A DNA stretch of 27,769 bases from an uncultured virus (IMG/VR IMGVR_UViG_2061766007_000494) (IMGVR_UViG_2061766007_000494), one strand, 5' to 3'. Shown: positions 1 to 8,728, numbered from the stretch's first letter. A program made the numbers and translations. The notes: generated from the sequence alone by a model not told the origin.

Positions 1-575
1 TGTTTGACAAGGACGCGGAGGAAACATGGGGCGATAACCCGCAGACGATAGGCGAAGGAAATCCTCCTGAAGAAATCGGGGGGAGAAAGGCTGTCGGCGT
101 TCTGGTAGTCAAGGATGGCAAGTATCTTGTCGGAACCAGAATCAGCAATACCGGCTACGGGCAAATCTGCGGCCCCGGTGGACACGTGGAACCGGGCGAG
201 AATCCTGCCTACGCCGCGATGCGCGAGACGGACGAAGAATTCGGTATCATCCCAAACGACCTGTACTTTATCGACTGTAAAGAACCTGATTCGGAAACCG
301 GGTTGGAAAGCTACATGTTCCTCTGTACGGACTTCGAGGGCGAGCCGAAATGCGATGACGAAGAAATGACCGGTGCGCATTGGCTGTCCGACAAAGAAGT
401 TGCCCTGCTGGAAGACAACGCATTCCCCGCATTCCTGAACGGGATAGAAAGAGTTAAGAAATCTCTTGAACACCCGGAGGAAGAACCTGACGAAGAATAC
501 CCCAACGTAAGAGACAAAGACGAAGGGAAACCGATGGTTTCAGCCTTCCGAGGCGGAATCGAAACCAGAATATAA
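1..575 (+). CDS. 5'-truncated ORF ending in a Nudix hydrolase domain (probably the C-terminus of the portal protein)
   Basis: The frame of ORF 186..575 is open back to nt 3: FDKDAEETWGD...RKAVGVLVVKDGKYLVGTR...CGPGGHVEPGENPAYAAMRETDEEFGI. It has a complete Nudix box GX5EX7REUXEEXGU at 180-248. Portal identity is inferred only from its position before MuF. Confidence 0.85.
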   Translation, partial: FDKDAEETWGDNPQTIGEGNPPEEIGGRKAVGVLVVKDGKYLVGTRISNTGYGQICGPGGHVEPGENPAYAAMRETDEEFGIIPNDLYFIDCKEPDSETGLESYMFLCTDFEGEPKCDDEEMTGAHWLSDKEVALLEDNAFPAFLNGIERVKKSLEHPEEEPDEEYPNVRDKDEGKPMVSAFRGGIETRI

Positions 576-584
576 AGAAAACTC

Positions 585-613
585 TTGACAATATCACAAA
601 TTTACGGTATGAT
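585..613 (+). promoter_or_regulatory. sigma-70/sigma-A promoter P1
   Basis: TTGACA (585-590), 17-bp spacer, TATGAT (608-613). RBS AAGGAG at 620-625 precedes ATG 635. Confidence 0.8.
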
Positions 614-634
614 ATCGTAAAGGAGTGATAAAGC

Positions 635-829
635 ATGAAGGTCAAGAGTGTTGAAGAACTGAAGTTCATGAGCGAGGAGCTGCAAAGGGCTTACGTTGCG
701 AAGTGTGCGGACTACTGGGAAAAGAACTTCATGGGAAAAGACTGGGAGAAGATGAACCCGGAGGAACAGGAAGAAGACGATAAGTTGAGGGACATATTCC
801 GGTACGCGAGAATAAACCTTGATGATTGA
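635..829 (+). CDS. small helical protein, 64 aa; paralog of 4654..4851; candidate orphan immunity protein
   Basis: Own promoter and RBS. Aligns by eye with ORF 4654 (MK..S...L..M.......YV.K ... EQ...D....D.FR..RIN.D). Confidence 0.75.
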   Translation: MKVKSVEELKFMSEELQRAYVAKCADYWEKNFMGKDWEKMNPEEQEEDDKLRDIFRYARINLDD

Positions 830-1656
830 ATAGCGGGGAGGGAAACCTTCCCGCTTTCTTTGTGGATATGGACGAGATTGCCAAGAAATTCAAAGGGCGG
901 AAAGTGCTTCCGAGCAGAACCGTACCGATATATCCGAAAAGCGCCGAACGAGAGATACAAAGACTCGTTGGCGCTTATTTTATTGAGCTTTCAAAAGTTG
1001 TTCGTGACGGCGGAAGCTATAAGCGCATTGAACGGATGGCGACCGGGAAGTCTGTGTCGGGCAGGATTGACAAGATATCCCGTCAGGTACAATACCACGC
1101 AATCAGAGAGTGGAAGCGATGCCTGCAAGATACCTTGGGTGCGGATGTCCCCGCAGACTACTACACTAATCTGTTCAAGGATACAGCCGAAGAGTGGAAG
1201 AAGTCCGTAGCGGAGCAGCTTTCCGGTTTTCCAGAGGCGGCGAAGCAGTACAAGAAGGAAATACTTCGAGAGTGCCGCAAGAAGGGCATGACAAAGCAGG
1301 AAACCAGACGGGAACTGAGCATGAAACTTGCGTCACAAAAGCGGCAGGCGAAAGCAAGGGCTGTGGCTTCTGTTGCGAATCTGTTTGGCGATTTGAGCAG
1401 GCTTCAGCAGAAGGACGCGGGATGCAAAAGGTACAAATGGAGAACTCAAAGGGACAGCCGCGTGAGGTCATGCCACAGGGCGCTGGAAGGAAAGATTTTT
1501 TCTTGGGACAATCCGCCTATGATGTGGAGAGAAACTGCACACGGAATCGTTTACACGGGCGAGAGATGCAATCCCGGTGAAGACTGGGGATGCAGATGCA
1601 TCGCAATTCCTGTGTTTGATATAAGTAGCCTGACATTACCTGATATGGGGGAATAA
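826..1656 (+). CDS. MuF / SPP1 gp7-like minor head protein (short form, no toxin extension)
   Basis: C-terminal YKWRTQRDSRVRSCHRALEGKIFSWDNPP...PGEDWGCRCIAIP is the MuF signature. The ORF ends soon after CRC. Start uncertain (TTG 826 or ATG 868). Confidence 0.9.
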   Translation: MNSGEGNLPAFFVDMDEIAKKFKGRKVLPSRTVPIYPKSAEREIQRLVGAYFIELSKVVRDGGSYKRIERMATGKSVSGRIDKISRQVQYHAIREWKRCLQDTLGADVPADYYTNLFKDTAEEWKKSVAEQLSGFPEAAKQYKKEILRECRKKGMTKQETRRELSMKLASQKRQAKARAVASVANLFGDLSRLQQKDAGCKRYKWRTQRDSRVRSCHRALEGKIFSWDNPPMMWRETAHGIVYTGERCNPGEDWGCRCIAIPVFDISSLTLPDMGE

Positions 1657-1658
1657 TA

Positions 1659-2444
1659 ATGGACAACAAAGAAGCAATCGCCGCTTGGAGAGCACGGAGG
1701 GAAAAACGCCTATCGGCACGTGGTATGTCCCATAAGGACGAAGACCAATGGGTGACTATAAAGGGTACGCATGTTCTTGTTGGGGAAAACGGGAAAATCA
1801 AGAACAACTTCATCGACGGGAAAGCAGAAGCTCGTTTAGGCGGAAAGAATATGCGTGAAGTAGACAAGGGAATCCAAAAGAAAAGCGAGCCTGAAGGTGC
1901 CGAACAGAGTGTCGGAAAGAAAAACAACAGGCACAATGAAGTATACGGGCCAGTTACCCTAAGCGATGAAATAAAAGACATGGCTGTAGATTTCAAGGAT
2001 AACCTTGTGTCCCTTACTGGAGATAACGGAGAGAGCGCGAATAAGCATATTGGGGAAATCAATAAGACCATTAACAATATGCTGCAGTCACTCAAAAAGT
2101 CTAAAGAATACAAGGGAAGTAATGGGAGACTGGCAAAGACTGATTGGGCAGAACCGTTTGCCGAGGAAATCAGCACACATCTTCCGGCTCGTTCAACCAT
2201 GAAAATCGGGAATACAGAGTATGAGCTTTTGGAAAAGAAGCCTATGGGTGGAGGCGGATATTCTTCCCCGGTTTGGTATGGGAATGACGGAAGCGCAATG
2301 GATACCGCTACATTTGCCTGGAGGCTGTACGACCACATGAAAAATGGCGGTGAGTCCATTGAAATTACCAAAATAGGTAATGGGAAAGCTCCGAAACGAG
2401 CGTATGTGAAGAAAATGACTCTTGAAGAGTACATGGACTCGTGA
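1659..2444 (+). CDS. hypothetical head-associated protein with shared N-terminal leader (cargo 1)
   Basis: MDNKEAIAAWRARREKRL leader resembles ORF 5225. WVTIKGTHVLVGENG.I.NNF resembles ORF 2455. Starts 2 nt after the MuF stop. Confidence 0.8.
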   Translation: MDNKEAIAAWRARREKRLSARGMSHKDEDQWVTIKGTHVLVGENGKIKNNFIDGKAEARLGGKNMREVDKGIQKKSEPEGAEQSVGKKNNRHNEVYGPVTLSDEIKDMAVDFKDNLVSLTGDNGESANKHIGEINKTINNMLQSLKKSKEYKGSNGRLAKTDWAEPFAEEISTHLPARSTMKIGNTEYELLEKKPMGGGGYSSPVWYGNDGSAMDTATFAWRLYDHMKNGGESIEITKIGNGKAPKRAYVKKMTLEEYMDS

Positions 2445-2454
2445 GGTGCAAAAT

Positions 2455-4641
2455 ATGGATTCGATAAAGAAACCACAAAAGAGACAAATAAAACGTCTTG
2501 ACGAATACAAAAACAGCGAAAACTGGGTGACGATAAATGGCGTTCATGTGCTTCTGGATAAGCATGGGAACGTCATTAACAATTTCAAGGACTCAGACCA
2601 CAAGCTTAAGAATCTTCGATTCGTGGACGCTGTAAGTTCCCACACAGAGGGAGGGAAGAAGGTCATTGATGCTCCTATCAATCGAAAGACACACGAAGCG
2701 AAGTTCAACGACACCATGAAGAAGATTGCGAGTGCTCTTGGCGGAGGAGCTATCAAGAAGGACGATGCTCAGAAGCGGATGGCGAATGCATTTGCCAATC
2801 TGGAGCAGGGCGCAATCATCAATGCAGGTGACACCAAAGCCTTGAAACTGGGTAAGGGTCTTTTCAAGCTGAAGGGAATGAAAGGGAACTTTACCGCAAA
2901 GCAGCTCGCGGAGAAAGTCATGGGCGGCGTGAAGGTCAATGACTTTACGGGTGATGTTGATGGGATGCCTACCGTGAAGGAAGGAACAAACACCAATATT
3001 ATCCAGAAGGGAAGCAAGCGTATCTCCCATGTGGCGACGAACGCTCTGGAAGACCTGTACAACAAGTACAAGTCAAACAAGTACAGTCGTGAAGGGCTTC
3101 AGAAGCTTGCTAAGGGATACCTTGAAAGCCTGCCGAAAGGCTCTGAGCTTAATGTCGGGGGGAACACCTTCAAGAAGAACGACAAAGTGTGGAGCATCGA
3201 AGCGGATGGTGAGGAACACACGATTGCCGGGAATATGGTGGCAAATATCCTTCTGAACAGCATGAGCACGGGCTATGCGGGAGGAACGCTGAATGCGAAG
3301 ATTCCCGAAGCGAGTGCTGCGACTGAAAAGAAGGTCGAAAAGTCCGCTGAGAAAATCGCGGAGAAGAAGCCTGTCAAGACTCCCAAGGAAAGTGAACCGG
3401 CTGACTATCCGACTGACAAAGAGATAAAGAAAATGGCTGAAGAGTTCGAGAAGGAAACCCCGGCTCCCGCTCCAAAGCTTATGTCCGATTCTTTGAAGGA
3501 AATCGTTTCCGGCAGCGGTACACCCGCTGAGAAGAAGGATGCAATTACCAAGTTCCTTACAGAGCTTCCCGATGGAACGGCGATTTCGTATGAAGCGACG
3601 AGTAAGACCACCGGTGAGTTGTATGTGGTCAAGGGAATCAAGGAAGGGGATAAAATCAAGTTTACGACGAAGGAAGCTCCGCTGCATGGCGTAGCGAAGT
3701 CCTTCCTGAAGAAGCTTGAAGAGGGCCTGCACGTTGGCGGCTCCGACGAAGAAGCGTTCGCGTGGGCAAAGTCCAAAGCTCCCACTACCGAAGTTGCGAA
3801 GCCTGAAGAAAAGGCTGAGGAAAAGCCTGCCGAGAAGCCTGCCGCCGAAGAAAAACCCGCTGAACCCGCAAAGCCTTCCAAAATCTTCGCAACCGATAAG
3901 ATGAACAAGCTTGCTACTATTCCGGTTGACAAGAGCAAGTATACACCTGAGAAAAAAGACACGGCGATGAAGGAGTGGACATCACCGAGCCATTGGGATA
4001 ATGTCCAGAAGAAGTATAAGACGAAATCTATGGAGTGGTTCAAGGGACTTCCTGAAAAGGTTCGTGGTTGGTTCGAACACTACACAGGTGGCGGATATAT
4101 GGCTATCAACAATGCACTCCGTAATGCTGGTTCTGATGGGCTGGATGACTACATGACCAACAAGGTAAATGCTATGACCGAAGAGCTTGCTAAAAACAAG
4201 CTGACCGAGCCGACGATTCTGCGGCGCGGTGTTGGTTATGAAACTATGGCAAGTATGTTCGGCATGAGCTACGATGAAGTTGAAAAGCTCGCTATGAACC
4301 CGGAGAAATTCAAGGATACGTTCCTCGATAGCGTTGGCGTAGACAACGGATTTGGTTCTTGCGGCACCGCGCCTGGAACCGGATTTATGAAGCAATTCGA
4401 CTTTGAAATCTACTGCCCCGAAGGAACTGAGGCTGTGTTCGCAAATCCGTGGTCAACGCACAAGTCCTACACAAAGGGCAGCGGTGAGTTTGAGACCATC
4501 GTTCAGCGCGGCTCCGCATACAAGATTACCGGGATTGAGCCGAAGCCTTACGGAAGGTTCAAAATCAAGTGCGAGATTATCGCGCAGCGGCAGTTCGTCG
4601 ATAACTTCGGTGATGCAATTACCGGAAAGCTTGCCGCGTAA
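2455..4641 (+). CDS. large protein with C-terminal VIP2/ExoS-like (R-S-E clade) ADP-ribosyltransferase domain (cargo 2)
   Basis: YTGGGYMAINNALR (about 4081), ILRRG (about 4216-4230), GFGSCG (4348-4365, STS-equivalent) and EFE (4486-4494) followed by IVQRGSAYKI. The better start is ATG 2455 behind GAGGTG, not 2422. Confidence 0.85.
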   Translation: MDSIKKPQKRQIKRLDEYKNSENWVTINGVHVLLDKHGNVINNFKDSDHKLKNLRFVDAVSSHTEGGKKVIDAPINRKTHEAKFNDTMKKIASALGGGAIKKDDAQKRMANAFANLEQGAIINAGDTKALKLGKGLFKLKGMKGNFTAKQLAEKVMGGVKVNDFTGDVDGMPTVKEGTNTNIIQKGSKRISHVATNALEDLYNKYKSNKYSREGLQKLAKGYLESLPKGSELNVGGNTFKKNDKVWSIEADGEEHTIAGNMVANILLNSMSTGYAGGTLNAKIPEASAATEKKVEKSAEKIAEKKPVKTPKESEPADYPTDKEIKKMAEEFEKETPAPAPKLMSDSLKEIVSGSGTPAEKKDAITKFLTELPDGTAISYEATSKTTGELYVVKGIKEGDKIKFTTKEAPLHGVAKSFLKKLEEGLHVGGSDEEAFAWAKSKAPTTEVAKPEEKAEEKPAEKPAAEEKPAEPAKPSKIFATDKMNKLATIPVDKSKYTPEKKDTAMKEWTSPSHWDNVQKKYKTKSMEWFKGLPEKVRGWFEHYTGGGYMAINNALRNAGSDGLDDYMTNKVNAMTEELAKNKLTEPTILRRGVGYETMASMFGMSYDEVEKLAMNPEKFKDTFLDSVGVDNGFGSCGTAPGTGFMKQFDFEIYCPEGTEAVFANPWSTHKSYTKGSGEFETIVQRGSAYKITGIEPKPYGRFKIKCEIIAQRQFVDNFGDAITGKLAA

Positions 4642-4653
4642 AGGAGAAGGAAC

Positions 4654-4851
4654 ATGAAGATTCTGAGCAGAAAACACCTCGTCGAAATGAGAAGCAAGGA
4701 AATCTCCGATTATGTGGAGAAGCTTGACAGGCAGCTCGAAAAGAAGGGCTGGTACGAAAAGTCCAAGAAAGGCGAACTGACCGAGGACGAGCAGAAGCTT
4801 TTCGACCGCATCATGGATGACTTCCGCTGGCTTCGCATTAACGCTGACTAA
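4654..4851 (+). CDS. small helical protein, 65 aa; candidate cognate immunity/partner of the ART
   Basis: RBS AAGGAG directly after the ART stop. Paralog of 635..829. Confidence 0.75.
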   Translation: MKILSRKHLVEMRSKEISDYVEKLDRQLEKKGWYEKSKKGELTEDEQKLFDRIMDDFRWLRINAD

Positions 4852-4883
4852 CAAGCAAATCTTTGAGAAAATCAAGAAAACGC

Positions 4884-4911
4884 TTGACAAAAGGCGCGGA
4901 TGTGATATAAT
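4884..4911 (+). promoter_or_regulatory. sigma-70/sigma-A promoter P2 with extended -10
   Basis: TTGACA (4884-4889), 16-bp spacer ending TGTGA, TATAAT (4906-4911). RBS GGGAGGGTGA precedes ATG 4933. Confidence 0.85.
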
Positions 4912-4932
4912 GGCGGCTGGGAGGGTGATGAT

Positions 4933-5163
4933 ATGCACGATGTAACTCCGAAGTTCGTTCATGAATACGGCTACGATGATGCGGAAGGAAACTTCCGCAT
5001 GAAGGATGAAGCCCCAGTCGAACTGAAAAAGAAGTTCGAGATATGGTACAACAAGAACTTCGCTTTCGAGGACGAAGGGAAGGAAGACCCGTGGTATACA
5101 TGGGATGCCAAGGTGATTGAGAAGAAGGACAGGTCAAAAAGACCTGAGTTCGCCAAAAAGTGA
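4933..5163 (+). CDS. small acidic/aromatic protein, 76 aa; moron-like, candidate immunity protein
   Basis: Bracketed by promoter P2 and an intrinsic terminator. Contains the motif FRMKDEAPVELKKKFEIWY. Confidence 0.75.
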   Translation: MHDVTPKFVHEYGYDDAEGNFRMKDEAPVELKKKFEIWYNKNFAFEDEGKEDPWYTWDAKVIEKKDRSKRPEFAKK

Positions 5164-5172
5164 AGAAACCGC

Positions 5173-5205
5173 AAAAGCCGCTTGGGTTGTCCCAGGCGGC
5201 TTTTT
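5173..5205 (+). terminator. intrinsic (possibly bidirectional) terminator
   Basis: AAAAGCCGCTTGGG-TTGT-CCCAGGCGGCTTTTT: 14-bp stem with one G:U pair, A tract before and T tract after. Confidence 0.85.
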
Positions 5206-5224
5206 CTGTGGGTGGTGAAAGTAC

Positions 5225-6757
5225 ATGACCGACAACAAAAACGCGATTGAGGCGTGGCACAGGCGGCGAGAGAAGCGTTTAGCAGAGAGAACCCGGATGG
5301 ACTTCGAGGTTGGCGATTATGGCCCCGACGAAGCAGGAGATAAAGGCACCTCACATGGCAACACACGCTTGCCCTATGGGCTTTGCAAATCAGCCGGTAT
5401 AGATACTACTGGTATGTCGCCTAGCGAAGCATGGGAAGCTCTGGAAGGTAAGACGGGAGTTTCCGCAAAGGAAGCGTATAAAGACATCAAAAAGTATGGA
5501 ACCGCAAAGGCTGTGGACATTCCGAAGAAGAGTGAAAACGGCAATTTGCCAGGAACCGAAGAACTGAGCAACCGGGGGCCGATTCCTGAACCGTTCGAAA
5601 AGGGGAAGCCTGAGAAAAGCAAAGCTGTCCAAGATGCGCTGAAACGAATCGGAAGCGTAAAGTCCGTAAAGACCGAGGAACAGATTCAGGAGCAGCTAGA
5701 CAAGCTGAAGTCCGAGTACGGCGAAAAGGGTGTTGTCGGTTTTGTGACCGCAGGCGGGAGAGAGCATCACTTTGACCTTTCGCATCCCATGATTGCATCG
5801 AACATTGCATACTTCAAGAAAGACGGGCCACTCTTCATGTTCGCCGGTAAGGATGAATCCGATGCTAAAAGCGAAGTCAAACAGATAGTTGACGGTTGGA
5901 AAAAATCCGGTGACATAGACAACATTCTCCGCGCCTACGATTACGATTTGGTTGAGCTTAGGAAGCAGAAGGGACGAGGGGATATCACCGTCGAGGAATA
6001 CGAATCCTTGTCCGGCGAAAAGAAAAAAGAACGAAGTAAAAGAGTCCTGAAATCGCTTCCGACATACGATGATTGCAAGACCACCCGGCAGGTTGCAGCC
6101 AGAATGGACGCACAGGGAAATTTCAAAGCCGCAGCGTACTTCAGCTCGAATGCGGCGGTTGAAAACGCGAGGGAAGCCGCTGTTTCTGCTGAGAAAATGT
6201 TCAATATATTCCCAACGATGAAGGGACGGGTTGAAAGTATCAACGCTTCTGTCCCGAAAAGCAAGTCTTATGCGTGGGTTGAGAATAAAACCGATTCTGG
6301 GATATACCTTAGCAAAACATATATGGCAGACCGGAAAAAATTGGAAGAACTGTACGATACCGATGTGAAATACGGTTTCCATCCGCCCGGAACAGACTCA
6401 AAGGCCATCGTGTATCACGAGTTCACGCACGTTATTGACTTGAACCTGTCTTCCTATGCAAACAAGCATGGTGGAATTCCGGGACATCCAGGGGCGAAGG
6501 TTTCCACTGCAATTGCAAGAGATATGGCATTGGCTCGCGGAATAACGCTTACCGAATTGAAGAAACGGGTTAGCAAATATGCGTTGAAAAAGTATAAAGA
6601 AACCGGAAACAATGAGCTGGAGTTTCTTGCTGAATGCATGGCAGAATACTTGGGAAGTCCGCACCCGCGAGAAATAGCTGTGGATTGTGCGAACAGACTT
6701 TTCAAGTACATGAGACAGTTTTGGGGAGATAAAGCTGTAAACGAAAGCGCAATCTGA
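5225..6757 (+). CDS. protein with shared leader and C-terminal zincin-type metallopeptidase domain (cargo 3)
   Basis: HEFTH (6416-6430), then SKYA and EFLAE (6620-6634) supplying the probable third zinc ligand, a spacing like lethal-factor/Pro-Pro endopeptidase-type zincins. N-terminus MTDNKNAIEAWHRRREKRL. Confidence 0.8.
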   Translation: MTDNKNAIEAWHRRREKRLAERTRMDFEVGDYGPDEAGDKGTSHGNTRLPYGLCKSAGIDTTGMSPSEAWEALEGKTGVSAKEAYKDIKKYGTAKAVDIPKKSENGNLPGTEELSNRGPIPEPFEKGKPEKSKAVQDALKRIGSVKSVKTEEQIQEQLDKLKSEYGEKGVVGFVTAGGREHHFDLSHPMIASNIAYFKKDGPLFMFAGKDESDAKSEVKQIVDGWKKSGDIDNILRAYDYDLVELRKQKGRGDITVEEYESLSGEKKKERSKRVLKSLPTYDDCKTTRQVAARMDAQGNFKAAAYFSSNAAVENAREAAVSAEKMFNIFPTMKGRVESINASVPKSKSYAWVENKTDSGIYLSKTYMADRKKLEELYDTDVKYGFHPPGTDSKAIVYHEFTHVIDLNLSSYANKHGGIPGHPGAKVSTAIARDMALARGITLTELKKRVSKYALKKYKETGNNELEFLAECMAEYLGSPHPREIAVDCANRLFKYMRQFWGDKAVNESAI

Positions 6758-6780
6758 CCGGGGAATACCCGGTCATTTCT
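6755..6780 (+). terminator. hairpin, possible weak intrinsic terminator
   Basis: TGACCGGG-GAATA-CCCGGTCA (8-bp perfect stem beginning at the stop codon) followed by TTTCT. Confidence 0.5.
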
Positions 6781-6808
6781 ATAGCTCTCCAAGGGGGAGG
6801 GGGATGGT

Positions 6809-6982
6809 TTGAAGGAGTATGAAAGAATCCCTGTGTATGTAGACATACAGAACGGCGAAACAAAATGCATCTGCAAGCACGAAAAAAAGTTGTGCGACAA
6901 GGATTGCGAAAAAGACGTGGTAACGCGGGACAAGTTTGAAGGCTGGTATTCCACGTTCCACCGAGACGAGTATGGAAGATAG
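6809..6982 (+). CDS. small Cys-rich protein, 57 aa (absent from the supplied ORF track)
   Basis: TTG start behind GGAGG (6796-6800). Translation: MKEYERIPVYVDIQNGETKCICKHEKKLCDKDCEKDVVTRDKFEGWYSTFHRDEYGR. The stop abuts the RBS of the next gene. Confidence 0.7.
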   Translation: MKEYERIPVYVDIQNGETKCICKHEKKLCDKDCEKDVVTRDKFEGWYSTFHRDEYGR

Positions 6983-6994
6983 GAGGGGTGAATA

Positions 6995-8728
6995 ATGCCG
7001 CCTACTCTGCGGCGAGTGGTACGACTTGACAGCATACCGATTCGCAAAGCAGTTTTCACCGATGAGGGCTATCTGAGAGACAAGCCAATTCTCACAAGCA
7101 CAGGCATCTTCGAGTATACGAATCCTGACGGTTCAATTCGCCGGGAACTTCGATTGCCCGAAGATGTTTTTGCTAAAGAAAGCCTCGCTAGTTACAAAGG
7201 AAAACCGATAATCATTACCCATGATGCCGGTTTGGTAACGAAGGATAATGTTCACGATAATCAAGTGGGCACTATTCTGAGCGAGGGGTTCCAGGATGGC
7301 GAGAATGTCCGTGCGGATATCGTAATCCACGACACGGACGAAATGAAGGACAGGGGCTACAAGGAATTGTCCCTTGGCTACAACCTTGACCTTGAGGAAA
7401 CTCCGGGTACTTGGCACGGTCAACCTTACGACGCTATCCAGCGGAACATTATCATCAATCATCTTGCTCTGGTGAGGGAAGCTAGGGCTGGTGAACAGGC
7501 GCGACTGAATATAGACAGCCGCGATTCTGATATCCTTAAAGGAGGAAAGAGCATGAATAAGACTCCCAAGAAGACCGTTCGCGGCGACGGCATTCTTAGC
7601 AAGGAAGAGCTTGAGCAGGCCATCAAGGAATACAAAGCTCGCCGCGCTAAGGAAGCCGACAAAGACGAGCCTGTTGCCAGCGAACCGAAGCCGGAACCTG
7701 CCCCTGATAAGACCCCGGAGAAGAAGCCGGAGTCCAAGGAGGAGGTCAAGCCCACGGAGAAGGAGAAGCCCACGTTCGACGAGGATGTGGAAGCTGTCGA
7801 GACCGTGGAGAAGAAGCCCGAGTCTGTTGAAGACAAGATTCAGCAGGTGAAGGAAAACCGCAACATGCGGGACGAGGAGGGCGACCCCAAGGATAAGCTG
7901 TCCGCTATGGGGATGATTGCCCATCAGGACGAGGACATTGACACCCTCTTTGACATCATTGACACCCTTCTGGCCGAACGGGAGTTCAAGATGAAAGAAG
8001 ACTGTGCGAAGACCGATTCCGATGATGATGCTATCCCTGACCGTGATAAGAAGGGCGAGAGCGTTTCAAACTGCGACGGGGAGGAAGTCGAGGAAGAGGA
8101 AGTCGAAGTCAAGGAAGAGCCTGAAGGCGACCCCGAGGATGACGAAGACTGGGAGGACGAAGACTGGGAGGAGGACAGTGACGAAGAGGAAGAAGACTTC
8201 GAGGTAGAGGAAGACTTCGAAGAAGACTCCGACGATTCTACTGTCTTCGAGGAAGAGGAAGAAGACTGGGAAGAAGACGAAGAGGACGAGTGGGAAGAGG
8301 AAGAAGAGGAAGTCCAGTGTGACAGTCACGATTCCGTGATTCCCGATTCCACCGGTGAAGTCCACCACGTGAAGAAGCTCAATTCCGATTCCGTGGATGC
8401 GGTCATCAATCAGCGCATTGCGCTTGGAATGCTTGGCCGCAAGCTGAACATGGACGGGCTGGAAAAGCTTGGAATCATGTCCGCGAAGAAACGTATCATC
8501 AAGGCTGTGCGCCCGAATATCCGGCTTGACGGCAAGAGCGATGCGTACATCAACGCCGCGTATGATTGCGCCGTTGACGAAATTCAGAAGCGTTCCCGCA
8601 AGGGCGTGAAATACCAGAAGAAGCAGATGTTCAACAAGGATTCCAAGGTTCGGGCCGAAGAGGGCGGCAAGTCCTCTGCCGACGCTCGCCGGGAAATGAT
8701 TGAGCGTCAAATCAACCGCAATAAATAA
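6995..8728 (+). CDS. DUF2213-type prohead protease fused to scaffold
   Basis: N-terminal TDEGYL...TGIFEY...RRELRLPEDVF...SLASYKGKPIIITH...KELSLGY...QRNIIINHLALVREARAGEQARL, followed by a long acidic, low-complexity region. Lies before the decoration and capsid genes. Confidence 0.9.
   Translation: MPPTLRRVVRLDSIPIRKAVFTDEGYLRDKPILTSTGIFEYTNPDGSIRRELRLPEDVFAKESLASYKGKPIIITHDAGLVTKDNVHDNQVGTILSEGFQDGENVRADIVIHDTDEMKDRGYKELSLGYNLDLEETPGTWHGQPYDAIQRNIIINHLALVREARAGEQARLNIDSRDSDILKGGKSMNKTPKKTVRGDGILSKEELEQAIKEYKARRAKEADKDEPVASEPKPEPAPDKTPEKKPESKEEVKPTEKEKPTFDEDVEAVETVEKKPESVEDKIQQVKENRNMRDEEGDPKDKLSAMGMIAHQDEDIDTLFDIIDTLLAEREFKMKEDCAKTDSDDDAIPDRDKKGESVSNCDGEEVEEEEVEVKEEPEGDPEDDEDWEDEDWEEDSDEEEEDFEVEEDFEEDSDDSTVFEEEEEDWEEDEEDEWEEEEEEVQCDSHDSVIPDSTGEVHHVKKLNSDSVDAVINQRIALGMLGRKLNMDGLEKLGIMSAKKRIIKAVRPNIRLDGKSDAYINAAYDCAVDEIQKRSRKGVKYQKKQMFNKDSKVRAEEGGKSSADARREMIERQINRNK
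7553..8728 (+). CDS. probable nested in-frame scaffold protein (internal start)
   Basis: AAAGGAGG (7538-7545) 7 nt before an in-frame ATG at 7553, exactly at the end of the protease domain. Confidence 0.65.
   Translation: MNKTPKKTVRGDGILSKEELEQAIKEYKARRAKEADKDEPVASEPKPEPAPDKTPEKKPESKEEVKPTEKEKPTFDEDVEAVETVEKKPESVEDKIQQVKENRNMRDEEGDPKDKLSAMGMIAHQDEDIDTLFDIIDTLLAEREFKMKEDCAKTDSDDDAIPDRDKKGESVSNCDGEEVEEEEVEVKEEPEGDPEDDEDWEDEDWEEDSDEEEEDFEVEEDFEEDSDDSTVFEEEEEDWEEDEEDEWEEEEEEVQCDSHDSVIPDSTGEVHHVKKLNSDSVDAVINQRIALGMLGRKLNMDGLEKLGIMSAKKRIIKAVRPNIRLDGKSDAYINAAYDCAVDEIQKRSRKGVKYQKKQMFNKDSKVRAEEGGKSSADARREMIERQINRNK

Follow-up and report, generated by a model that had tools for sequence, protein, structure and literature searches.

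The early part of a DNA stretch from an uncultured virus (IMG/VR IMGVR_UViG_2061766007_000494) raised the question of why a phage should encode two related proteins of only 64 and 65 amino acids (aa), one directly behind the gene for an ADP-ribosyltransferase (ART) and the other farther upstream behind a promoter of its own. The whole stretch that was analyzed, 27,769 nucleotides (nt) in length, is referred to as the window. We call the upstream open reading frame (ORF) at 635..829 mp1 and the ORF at 4654..4851 mp2, and ART stands for the 728-aa protein encoded at 2455..4641. A preliminary description of the window had interpreted mp2 as the cognate immunity protein of the ART and mp1 as an orphan immunity protein. 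The results presented here indicated that the two micro-proteins are distant relatives in a very rare family, and we tentatively favor the idea that both of them inhibit the ART. The two ORFs are as follows.

635 to 829, plus strand: mp1 (64 aa), a helical micro-protein that belongs to the mp1-type subfamily; ATG start, with AGGAG at 621-625, 9 nt before the ATG.
4654 to 4851, plus strand: mp2 (65 aa), a helical micro-protein that belongs to the mp2-type subfamily; ATG start, with AGGAG at 4642-4646.

The coordinates and sequences previously given for both ORFs agreed with the DNA of the window. The spacing of 12 nt claimed between the ART gene and mp2 was also exact, as the ART stop codon (TAA) occupies 4639-4641 and the ATG of mp2 begins at 4654. 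In addition, the preliminary description had reported matching residues scattered along mp1 and mp2, and our alignments placed this similarity well above chance. In a single BLASTP comparison, only the C-terminal 24 residues were aligned, with 10/24 identical and an E-value of 2e-4. The Smith-Waterman local score was 63, compared to a mean of 28.9 (standard deviation, 5.6) for shuffled sequences, and none of the 5000 mp2 shuffles reached 63. Similar results were observed with global alignment, in which a score of 52 was compared to a shuffle mean of -10.4 (standard deviation, 10.9) and 0/5000 shuffles reached 52; z was about 6 in these shuffle tests. When the two small families were compared as profiles (of 3 and 4 sequences) using hhalign, 63 columns were aligned at 32% identity, with a probability of 95.6% and an E-value of 1.1e-8. 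Each protein had three close relatives in the databases (98, 82, and 68% identity for mp2 and 100, 83, and 75% for mp1), and a six-frame scan of the whole window with a family hidden Markov model (HMM) identified mp1 and mp2 as the sole copies. We concluded from these comparisons that mp1 and mp2 are true, distant paralogs.

A combined profile of the two proteins was searched against 1.84 billion representative proteins and yielded nine matches at E <= 1e-3, eight of which were credible. The match that was rejected as a family member (P0008) was a 1208-aa tetratricopeptide repeat protein that aligned in nine short stretches. Seven of the eight credible members were 65-69 aa in length. In the eighth (P0012; 221 aa, representing a cluster of six), the domain was located at the C terminus of a Cys-rich region; the N-terminal region of this protein contained several CxxC pairs, and three of the six cluster members came from NCBI records. 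No family in PHROGs, NCBIfam, or PADLOC matched mp1 or mp2, and the best Pfam E-values for the two (0.032 and 0.047) were far below the cut-offs. A Pfam scan of all 12 members gave a best E-value of 0.006, in 2/12, and the family profile found nothing significant among PDB sequences (best E, 0.17). Searches of nucleotide collections yielded no relatives among 119 pattern stretches in IMG/VR or among 333 stretches in the JGI metagenomes when the family profile was applied, and tblastn against GenBank phages returned four records for mp2 and six for mp1, with a best E-value of 2. Two GTDB loci (L001 and L002, from 38 stretches) were dismissed as spurious; their matches were located within long high-GC frames overlapping other long ORFs and had family HMM E-values of 0.009-0.01. 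Judging from these searches, the mp1/mp2 family is very rare and unnamed.

Conservation in the family was centered on the N-terminal helix and on the C-terminal motif F-R-x-x-R-I-N-x-D, which mp1 and mp2 have in common. Residues R61, I62, and N63 (mp2 numbering) were invariant in all 13 aligned sequences, down to about 20% pairwise identity, and M12, Y20, R58, and D65 were nearly invariant, with R58 being Arg in 12 sequences and Lys in one. The chain always ended within a few residues of the R-I-N motif. An AlphaFold2 model based on 12 sequences was a confident helical hairpin (pLDDT, the predicted local distance difference test score, 88.8), with helices at residues 6-10, 14-31, 33-38, and 44-63; the last five to six residues were modeled with less confidence (block mean pLDDT, 73). 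Foldseek found no match to this model in the PDB at E <= 1e-3. The best hit in the VIA wide structure search was ribosomal protein uL29 (Z, 7.0), a generic helical hairpin that lies inside the background for helical models. A structure search of the Atlas gave no usable feature match for mp1 or mp2; neighbors carrying PF09720 (Unstab_antitox, a type II antitoxin family) had TM (template modeling) scores of 0.42-0.48, below the bar set by the service, and the micro-proteins themselves had no Pfam match.

In a maximum-likelihood tree, mp1 grouped with P0005, P0006, P0009, and the P0012 domain (support, 95/97), and mp2 grouped with P0001-3, P0007, and P0011 (support, 90/97). P0010 joined the mp1-type side weakly (61/65), and P0013 joined the mp2-type side weakly. 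P0013 and P0025, a 90% relative of P0010, were each found on a single Logan contig, with a length of 23417 listed in both cases, and the two very probably lie on one contig. Thus, a second and quite different phage seems to carry two divergent members, apparently one per subfamily, with weak attachment (61/65) in the tree. Because that phage also has two divergent members, the duplication looks old and retained, and the tree suggests that two old subfamilies have been kept together in at least two phages. Since an old, retained duplication is what the tree resembles, the label "orphan" is doubtful for mp1, which may not be a stray extra immunity gene.

The window consists of the structural gene module of a phage or prophage with a contractile tail (a myovirus), as determined via Pfam, PHROG, and NCBIfam scans. 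The genes are arranged in the order portal-NUDIX, mp1, MuF, 261-aa ORF, ART, mp2, 76-aa cassette, zincin-like gene, and prohead protease. The gene that precedes mp2 is as follows.

2455 to 4641, plus strand: ART, a 728-aa cargo protein with a leader, a long conserved middle, a Pro/Glu/Ala/Lys-rich linker, and a C-terminal ART domain of the R-S-ExE type (PF03496, phrog_3895).

The start codon at 2455 (ATG) fits the N termini of homologous proteins. The ART domain spans about aa 483-728 and scored 63.5 bits against PF03496, for which the cut-off is 23.4. In alignments to the BECa and VIP2 catalytic domains, EFE was placed on EYE, and the catalytic residues were R591 (nt 4225-4227), S635 (4357-4359), and E678/E680 (4486-4494). 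With a profile score above the cut-off and the catalytic motifs in place, the protein is an Alt/VIP2-like ADP-ribosyltransferase of the R-S-E class (PF03496). In enzymes of the VIP2/iota group, an ExE motif is associated with transfer to Arg. A search of 5.8 billion clusters yielded 672 candidates, of which only seven were homologs at E <= 1e-5, and R591, S635, E678, and E680 were unchanged in all seven. Because the Pfam score was high and the catalytic residues were retained in 7/7 homologs, the ART is likely to be active and potentially self-harming. A search of IMG/VR with the ART domain alone gave seven stretches and no relatives, and a degenerate pattern of the conserved ART motif had no matches in IMG/VR or in the JGI metagenomes.

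One homolog (P0020; 861 aa) was a MuF-ART fusion, which is the classic MuF-toxin architecture. Among the four homologs that are more distant, identity was 70-85% over the N-terminal 280 residues and 51-61% over the ART domain. These values indicate that the enzyme end of the protein is evolving faster, with no swapping of cassettes. We also considered a classic swapped-tip polymorphic toxin and rejected it, as six homologs kept the same ART family with graded divergence. The linker in front of the ART domain (window 3799-3860) was internally repeated; this segment had 3- and 12-nt insertions between relatives and drew many unrelated contigs, at a depth of about 22. Within the head module, the ART gene comes after MuF and before the prohead protease gene, and the phage probably packs the ART into its head.

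Although mp1 and mp2 are paralogs, the signals around them differed. The mp1 cassette contains the following elements.

585 to 613, plus strand: sigma-70-type promoter of the mp1 cassette, TTGACA-17-TATGAT, 11/12 matches.
832 to 862, plus strand: intrinsic terminator closing the mp1 cassette; a hairpin at 832-855 with a 10-bp stem and 7 GC pairs, followed by UUUCUUU.

The promoter that had been proposed in front of 635..829 was thus present at that location. The terminator directly 3' of mp1, which the preliminary description lacked, had a folding energy of -21.2 kcal/mol (z, -4.68), and 0/200 shuffles were as stable. Therefore, mp1 has the build of a moron, with a promoter and a terminator of its own around a single ORF between the portal-NUDIX gene and MuF. 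Only two sites with at least 11/12 matches were found in the window, at 585-613 and 4884-4911. The hexamers alone are modestly significant, because dinucleotide shuffles had a mean of 0.31 such sites and 10/200 shuffles reached two. The second site belongs to a cassette that follows mp2.

4884 to 5202, plus strand: second self-contained cassette, with a promoter at 4884-4911 (12/12, with TG), a 76-aa ORF at 4933..5163, and a terminator at 5184-5202.

The terminator of this cassette had a folding energy of -22.5 kcal/mol (z, -4.43), and the 76-aa ORF had no family match in Pfam, PHROG, NCBIfam, or PADLOC. The sequence AAGAAAACNCTTGACAA was common to its promoter and the mp1 promoter. Contig depth over the stretch around 578-615 was 37-82, compared to about 6 beside it, and the flanks of these contigs were unlike the window on both sides. 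Because of this high depth and the differing flanks, the mp1 promoter stretch is considered a repeated regulatory element. It is overlaid by an inverted repeat with 19-nt arms at 592-610 and 612-630 (79% complementary) that could be an operator, and the stretch may represent a family of phage promoters and operators. As for mp2, we found no promoter-like site and no terminator in the interval between it and the ART gene, and folding showed no stable hairpin after mp2. Thus, mp2 is predicted to be on the same late transcript as the ART.

The ART/mp2 junction was covered by contigs of all four sequencing runs that we compared, which came from four studies. These contigs included 3021-5164 in run X4 (9 differences), 2926-4707 in run X8 (91 differences), and 4338-5219 in run X3. 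Run X9 had two 1-nt insertions within the 12-nt spacer between the ART gene and mp2, and it covered the entire mp1 cassette (9-984, 84 differences). From about 4155 to 4810, X9 had one short piece only (4405-4454, the flanks of which were unlike the window) at a likeness of at least 80%, and the regions on either side of this interval were about 91-95% alike. The ART domain and most of mp2 could thus have diverged jointly in X9, but missing coverage is no proof, and this segment was not used as evidence. The longest contigs of P0001 and the ART homolog P0015 had the same length, 12668. Because all of the junction contigs came from close relatives, these data point to a stable arrangement and not to independent linkage.

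By analogy with described toxin-immunity pairs, we propose that mp2 is an inhibitor of the ART made together with the enzyme and that mp1 has the same function and is expressed separately; we regard this as quite possible, short of probable. Under this proposal, mp2 would be a small, all-helical immunity or antidote protein of the ART encoded just upstream. It would bind the ART domain in the producing cell and keep the enzyme silent until it is packed in the capsid. Passage through the tail at ejection would strip off the noncovalent inhibitor, and the ART would become active in the next host. Meanwhile, mp1 would supply the same inhibitor whenever the late operon is silent, be it in a lysogen or soon after infection, and would counter ART molecules arriving with this phage or a related one. 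Any role of the C-terminal motif in this process, such as Arg residues reaching the ExE glutamates, would be speculation. As in the layout of MuF toxin-immunity pairs, mp2 is 65 aa in length, lies 12 nt after the ART stop codon, and has its own AGGAG, and the ART is linked to MuF downstream of a portal gene, as in head-module toxins, with MuF being a separate gene here. Because mp1 has a promoter and a terminator of its own, it looks like a protective factor needed outside late expression and hardly like an assembly chaperone. The layout behind the earlier immunity interpretation thus fits a toxin-immunity pair with published precedent, and the orphan part of that interpretation is the part that the tree made doubtful. 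An improbable variant of the proposal is a timed antidote. In this variant, the injected ART would act at once, mp1, produced from its repeated promoter that is possibly under operator control, would then switch it off within minutes or, in a lysogen, disarm the ART of related phages, mp2 would silence new ART until packing, and the two subfamilies would split one inhibitory function by time of expression.

The closest precedents come from MuF-linked toxins. In the available parts of PMC5576092, an ORF of <150 aa comes after 89.4% of 191 MuF toxin genes, compared to 25.5% of 952 short MuF genes, and ARTs account for 14% of MuF toxins. As in those polymorphic toxins, the toxin candidate described here lies in the packaging and head module near the portal gene and has a small ORF without a known family behind it. 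In contrast to the toxins covered in that portion of the paper, the architecture here is split, with a short MuF and separate cargo genes, and the homologs keep one ART family with graded divergence and no swapped cassettes. The set in PMC5576092 is described as temperate phages.

According to the available parts of PMC11699363, the prophage MuF-ART Bxa of Bacteroides stercoris is bound and blocked by a small protein, Bsi, that co-purifies with it and protects cells, and an ADP-ribosylhydrolase protects alongside Bsi in this Bxa/Bsi/BAH system. The likeness to our locus is that an ART of the head module is linked to MuF and a small nonenzymatic protein is encoded beside it, with the binding by Bsi having been shown for Bxa, and that there would be more than one protective gene per toxin if the micro-proteins act as we propose. 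The differences, as far as that description goes, are that Bxa is fused to MuF, whereas here a short MuF is encoded separately and the ART has an N-terminal part of its own, 480 aa in length and with a leader, and that the second protector in the Bxa system is an ADP-ribosylhydrolase, whereas here it would be a paralog with its own promoter. The window contained no ADP-ribosylhydrolase-like gene, only the NUDIX domain upstream. The micro-proteins and Bsi are likened here by description; Bsi must be longer than 65 aa because the mutated residues reported for it are 89-92 (PMC11699363, in the parts at hand).

A second comparison is with T4 Alt and other ARTs of the Alt/VIP2 family that are packaged in the head (PMC5512222, PMC9503650, available portions), because here too a myovirus carries an ART among its head genes, and a NUDIX domain fused to a head protein, as in phages of the Alt/VIP2 type, points to enzymes that are injected with the DNA. 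Unlike the Alt-type enzymes, the ART described here has a conserved micro-protein gene coupled to it and a separately expressed paralog of that gene; the Alt/VIP2 descriptions in those portions include no inhibitor partner. A literature search for phage orphan immunity against toxins in superinfection found nothing. The orphan immunity genes of contact-dependent inhibition (CDI), Rhs, and type VI secretion system (T6SS) loci are extra copies without a neighboring toxin that protect against the toxins of relatives, and they usually form arrays of displaced toxin-tip and immunity remnants. In contrast, mp1 forms a clean cassette between a promoter and a terminator of its own, and its subfamily is seemingly retained beside the mp2 type in another phage.

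The other genes of the region, which bear on the alternatives discussed below, are as follows.

3 to 575, plus strand: 3' end of the upstream gene with a NUDIX domain (PF00293 E 1.2e-16), probably a portal C-terminal extension (phrog_15528 "portal protein", profile positions 521-629 of 794, E 4.5e-24).
868 to 1656, plus strand: short MuF (SPP1 gp7-like) minor head protein; PF04233 E 3.5e-13, phrog_324 E 3.2e-29, TIGR01641 E 4.4e-16.
1659 to 2444, plus strand: 261-aa protein with the shared N-terminal cargo leader (leader alignment), an accessory gene.
5225 to 6757, plus strand: 510-aa cargo protein that has part of the shared leader as well as a zincin-like HExxH region; it matches phrog_7153 ("zinc-finger protease"; E 4.7e-8) and phrog_21401 ("pilot protein for DNA ejection"; E 3.8e-7).
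6995 to 8728, plus strand: prohead protease, the end marker of the cargo block; phrog_530 E 6.5e-78.

The ORF that ends at 575 runs off the 5' end of the window, and this NUDIX-bearing gene also matched the PADLOC model PDC-S07 (E 2.2e-8). The start of MuF was set at the ATG at 868 because a longer frame from a TTG at 826 would cross the mp1 terminator. The 261-aa protein had no match in Pfam, PHROG, or NCBIfam, and the motif HEFTH was present in the translation of the 510-aa protein. A 57-aa Cys-containing ORF (6809-6982; TTG start, GGAGG upstream) with no PHROG match was located downstream of the terminator that follows the zincin-like gene and upstream of the protease gene. The C-terminal part of the prohead-protease gene (window 8080-8310) encodes degenerate Asp/Glu-rich repeats with spaced Trp and Phe residues, which are perhaps scaffold-like or a cleaved acidic tail. 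Genes for a major head protein, sheath, tape measure, baseplate, and fibers follow the protease gene. The window DNA or close relatives were found in 20 listed runs from 13 studies labeled as bovine, sheep, or other gut metagenomes, two of which may be the source sample and none of which was an RNA run, and the source is a rumen phage; megablast of window 1-7000 against GenBank phages gave no nucleotide-level match.

The three proteins encoded between MuF and the protease (leader regions at 1659-1800, 2455-2600, and 5225-5290), none of which matched a structural family, have a leader in common, A-I-x-A-W-x-x-R-R-E-K-R-L, and a second leader part, W-V-T-I-x-G-x-H-V-L, was present in two of the three. 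This leader may be a capsid-targeting module or a module for docking to the portal or MuF. A search of IMG/VR with the ART alignment identified nine loci (L003-L011) that matched in the N-terminal leader only. In four of them (L004, L005, L006, and L011), the leader was inside a portal C-terminal extension, and in L003 and L007-L010 it was close to the beginning of proteins of 417-457 aa or of an ORF truncated at the locus end. None of the nine had a micro-protein family member in the flanks that were scanned (HMM search of 2120 six-frame ORFs), and neither did any of five whole records. In L003, the leader-bearing 457-aa protein (239-2055) had a sub-threshold PF03496 match (E 8.7e-4; 19.1 bits, compared to 23.4) and the protein after it was a Cys_rich_CPCC protein of 147 aa (PF14206 E 3.1e-8), another kind of small partner behind an enzyme that may be related; a literature search for Cys_rich_CPCC found nothing. 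The cargo set itself is variable. An X9 contig joined 1666 to 2503 with 49 other letters between, which indicated that a close relative lacks the 261-aa gene and has MuF followed directly by the ART. In the IMG/VR phage L005, the portal gene and a separate NUDIX gene were followed by CPCC zinc-ribbon, YjcQ, and Bro/ANT genes and then by MuF, that is, in the slot occupied by mp1 here.

Several observations weigh against inhibition of the ART by the micro-proteins. Because the cargo region is a hot spot at which unrelated accessory genes gather, the adjacency of the ART and mp2 could be incidental: the 76-aa cassette comes right after mp2, the 261-aa gene is variable, and L005 has CPCC, YjcQ, and Bro/ANT genes in the mp1 slot. 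The adjacency was also seen solely in near relatives of this phage, at about 90-99% nucleotide identity. The six-member P0012 cluster fuses the micro-protein domain to a Cys-rich N-terminal region, and two members of the 90% clusters break the motif (P0024, with FQWIRINAG, and P0023, which ends early), although these breaks may be assembly errors. Furthermore, the available parts of PMC5512222 and PMC9503650 portray packaged phage ARTs of the Alt/VIP2 type as enzymes that are injected and modify the host. The term "immunity protein" is absent from the main text of PMC5512222, and the portion of PMC9503650 at hand has immunity proteins only for other toxin families (Ntox40-Imm63 and Arc-Imm74).

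These points lead to the most serious alternative, in which mp1 and mp2 have nothing to do with the ART and are moron-type accessory proteins with a target in the host or the phage, for example as a regulator, an anti-defense protein, or a host-factor binder, with mp2 having merely landed in the variable cargo region. The promoter-ORF-terminator arrangement of mp1 within a late operon is typical of a moron, the adjoining cassette at 4884-5202 has the same build and a related promoter, and the region gains and loses genes, as the missing 261-aa ORF in X9 and the other small genes in the L005 slot indicated. The micro-proteins also match no known immunity or antitoxin family, and their fold is a generic helical hairpin (VIA Z of 7.0 to uL29, with no Foldseek match at E <= 1e-3). 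However, mp2 lacks a promoter and a terminator of its own and sits tightly behind the ART gene with its own ribosome-binding site, the ART/mp2 junction was covered in 4/4 runs, and small ORFs after MuF-linked toxins are strongly enriched and encode immunity proteins in the tested cases (PMC5576092 and PMC11699363, in the parts available). On balance, we find the accessory explanation somewhat unlikely.

The proximity of small helical proteins to three cargo proteins with a common leader, with mp1 adjoining MuF and mp2 adjoining the largest cargo protein, would also be compatible with a chaperone or adaptor function, in which the micro-proteins keep leader-bearing cargo soluble or guide it to MuF, the portal, or the procapsid, like the effector chaperones of secretion systems. 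The separate promoter and terminator of mp1 do not suit a packaging helper, which would be expected to be expressed together with the late genes; the micro-protein family is far rarer than MuF, and the leader-bearing IMG/VR loci lack a family member (0/9 flanks, 0/5 whole records). This function is therefore improbable. Even less likely, in our view, is a special case of the immunity model that the preliminary description had raised as an Arg decoy, in which the micro-proteins are pseudo-substrates or substrates of the ART and R58 or R61 enters the active site to be ADP-ribosylated or to block it. The invariance of R61, the presence of Arg at position 58 in 12/13 sequences (Lys in one), and the ExE motif of the ART, a motif linked in textbooks to Arg specificity in the VIP2/iota group, are in keeping with a decoy, but conserved Arg residues in a helical hairpin could equally form structural salt bridges, and the last five to six residues of the model had the lower confidence noted above (block mean pLDDT, 73).

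If the micro-proteins do not inhibit the ART, mp1 and mp2 would be no more than two rare, paralogous accessory genes carried by a rumen phage. If our proposal of ART inhibition is true, they would represent a new and very small (65-aa) family of inhibitors for ADP-ribosyltransferases of the VIP2/Alt type. The locus would then join two published views of head-associated phage ARTs, namely, that they are injected host-modifying enzymes and that they are parts of toxin-immunity pairs. The separately expressed paralog would offer a way to test whether a phage can control, or a lysogen can resist, an enzyme that is injected, and a role of mp1 in the lysogen, if true, would be a superinfection defense that acts at the protein level.

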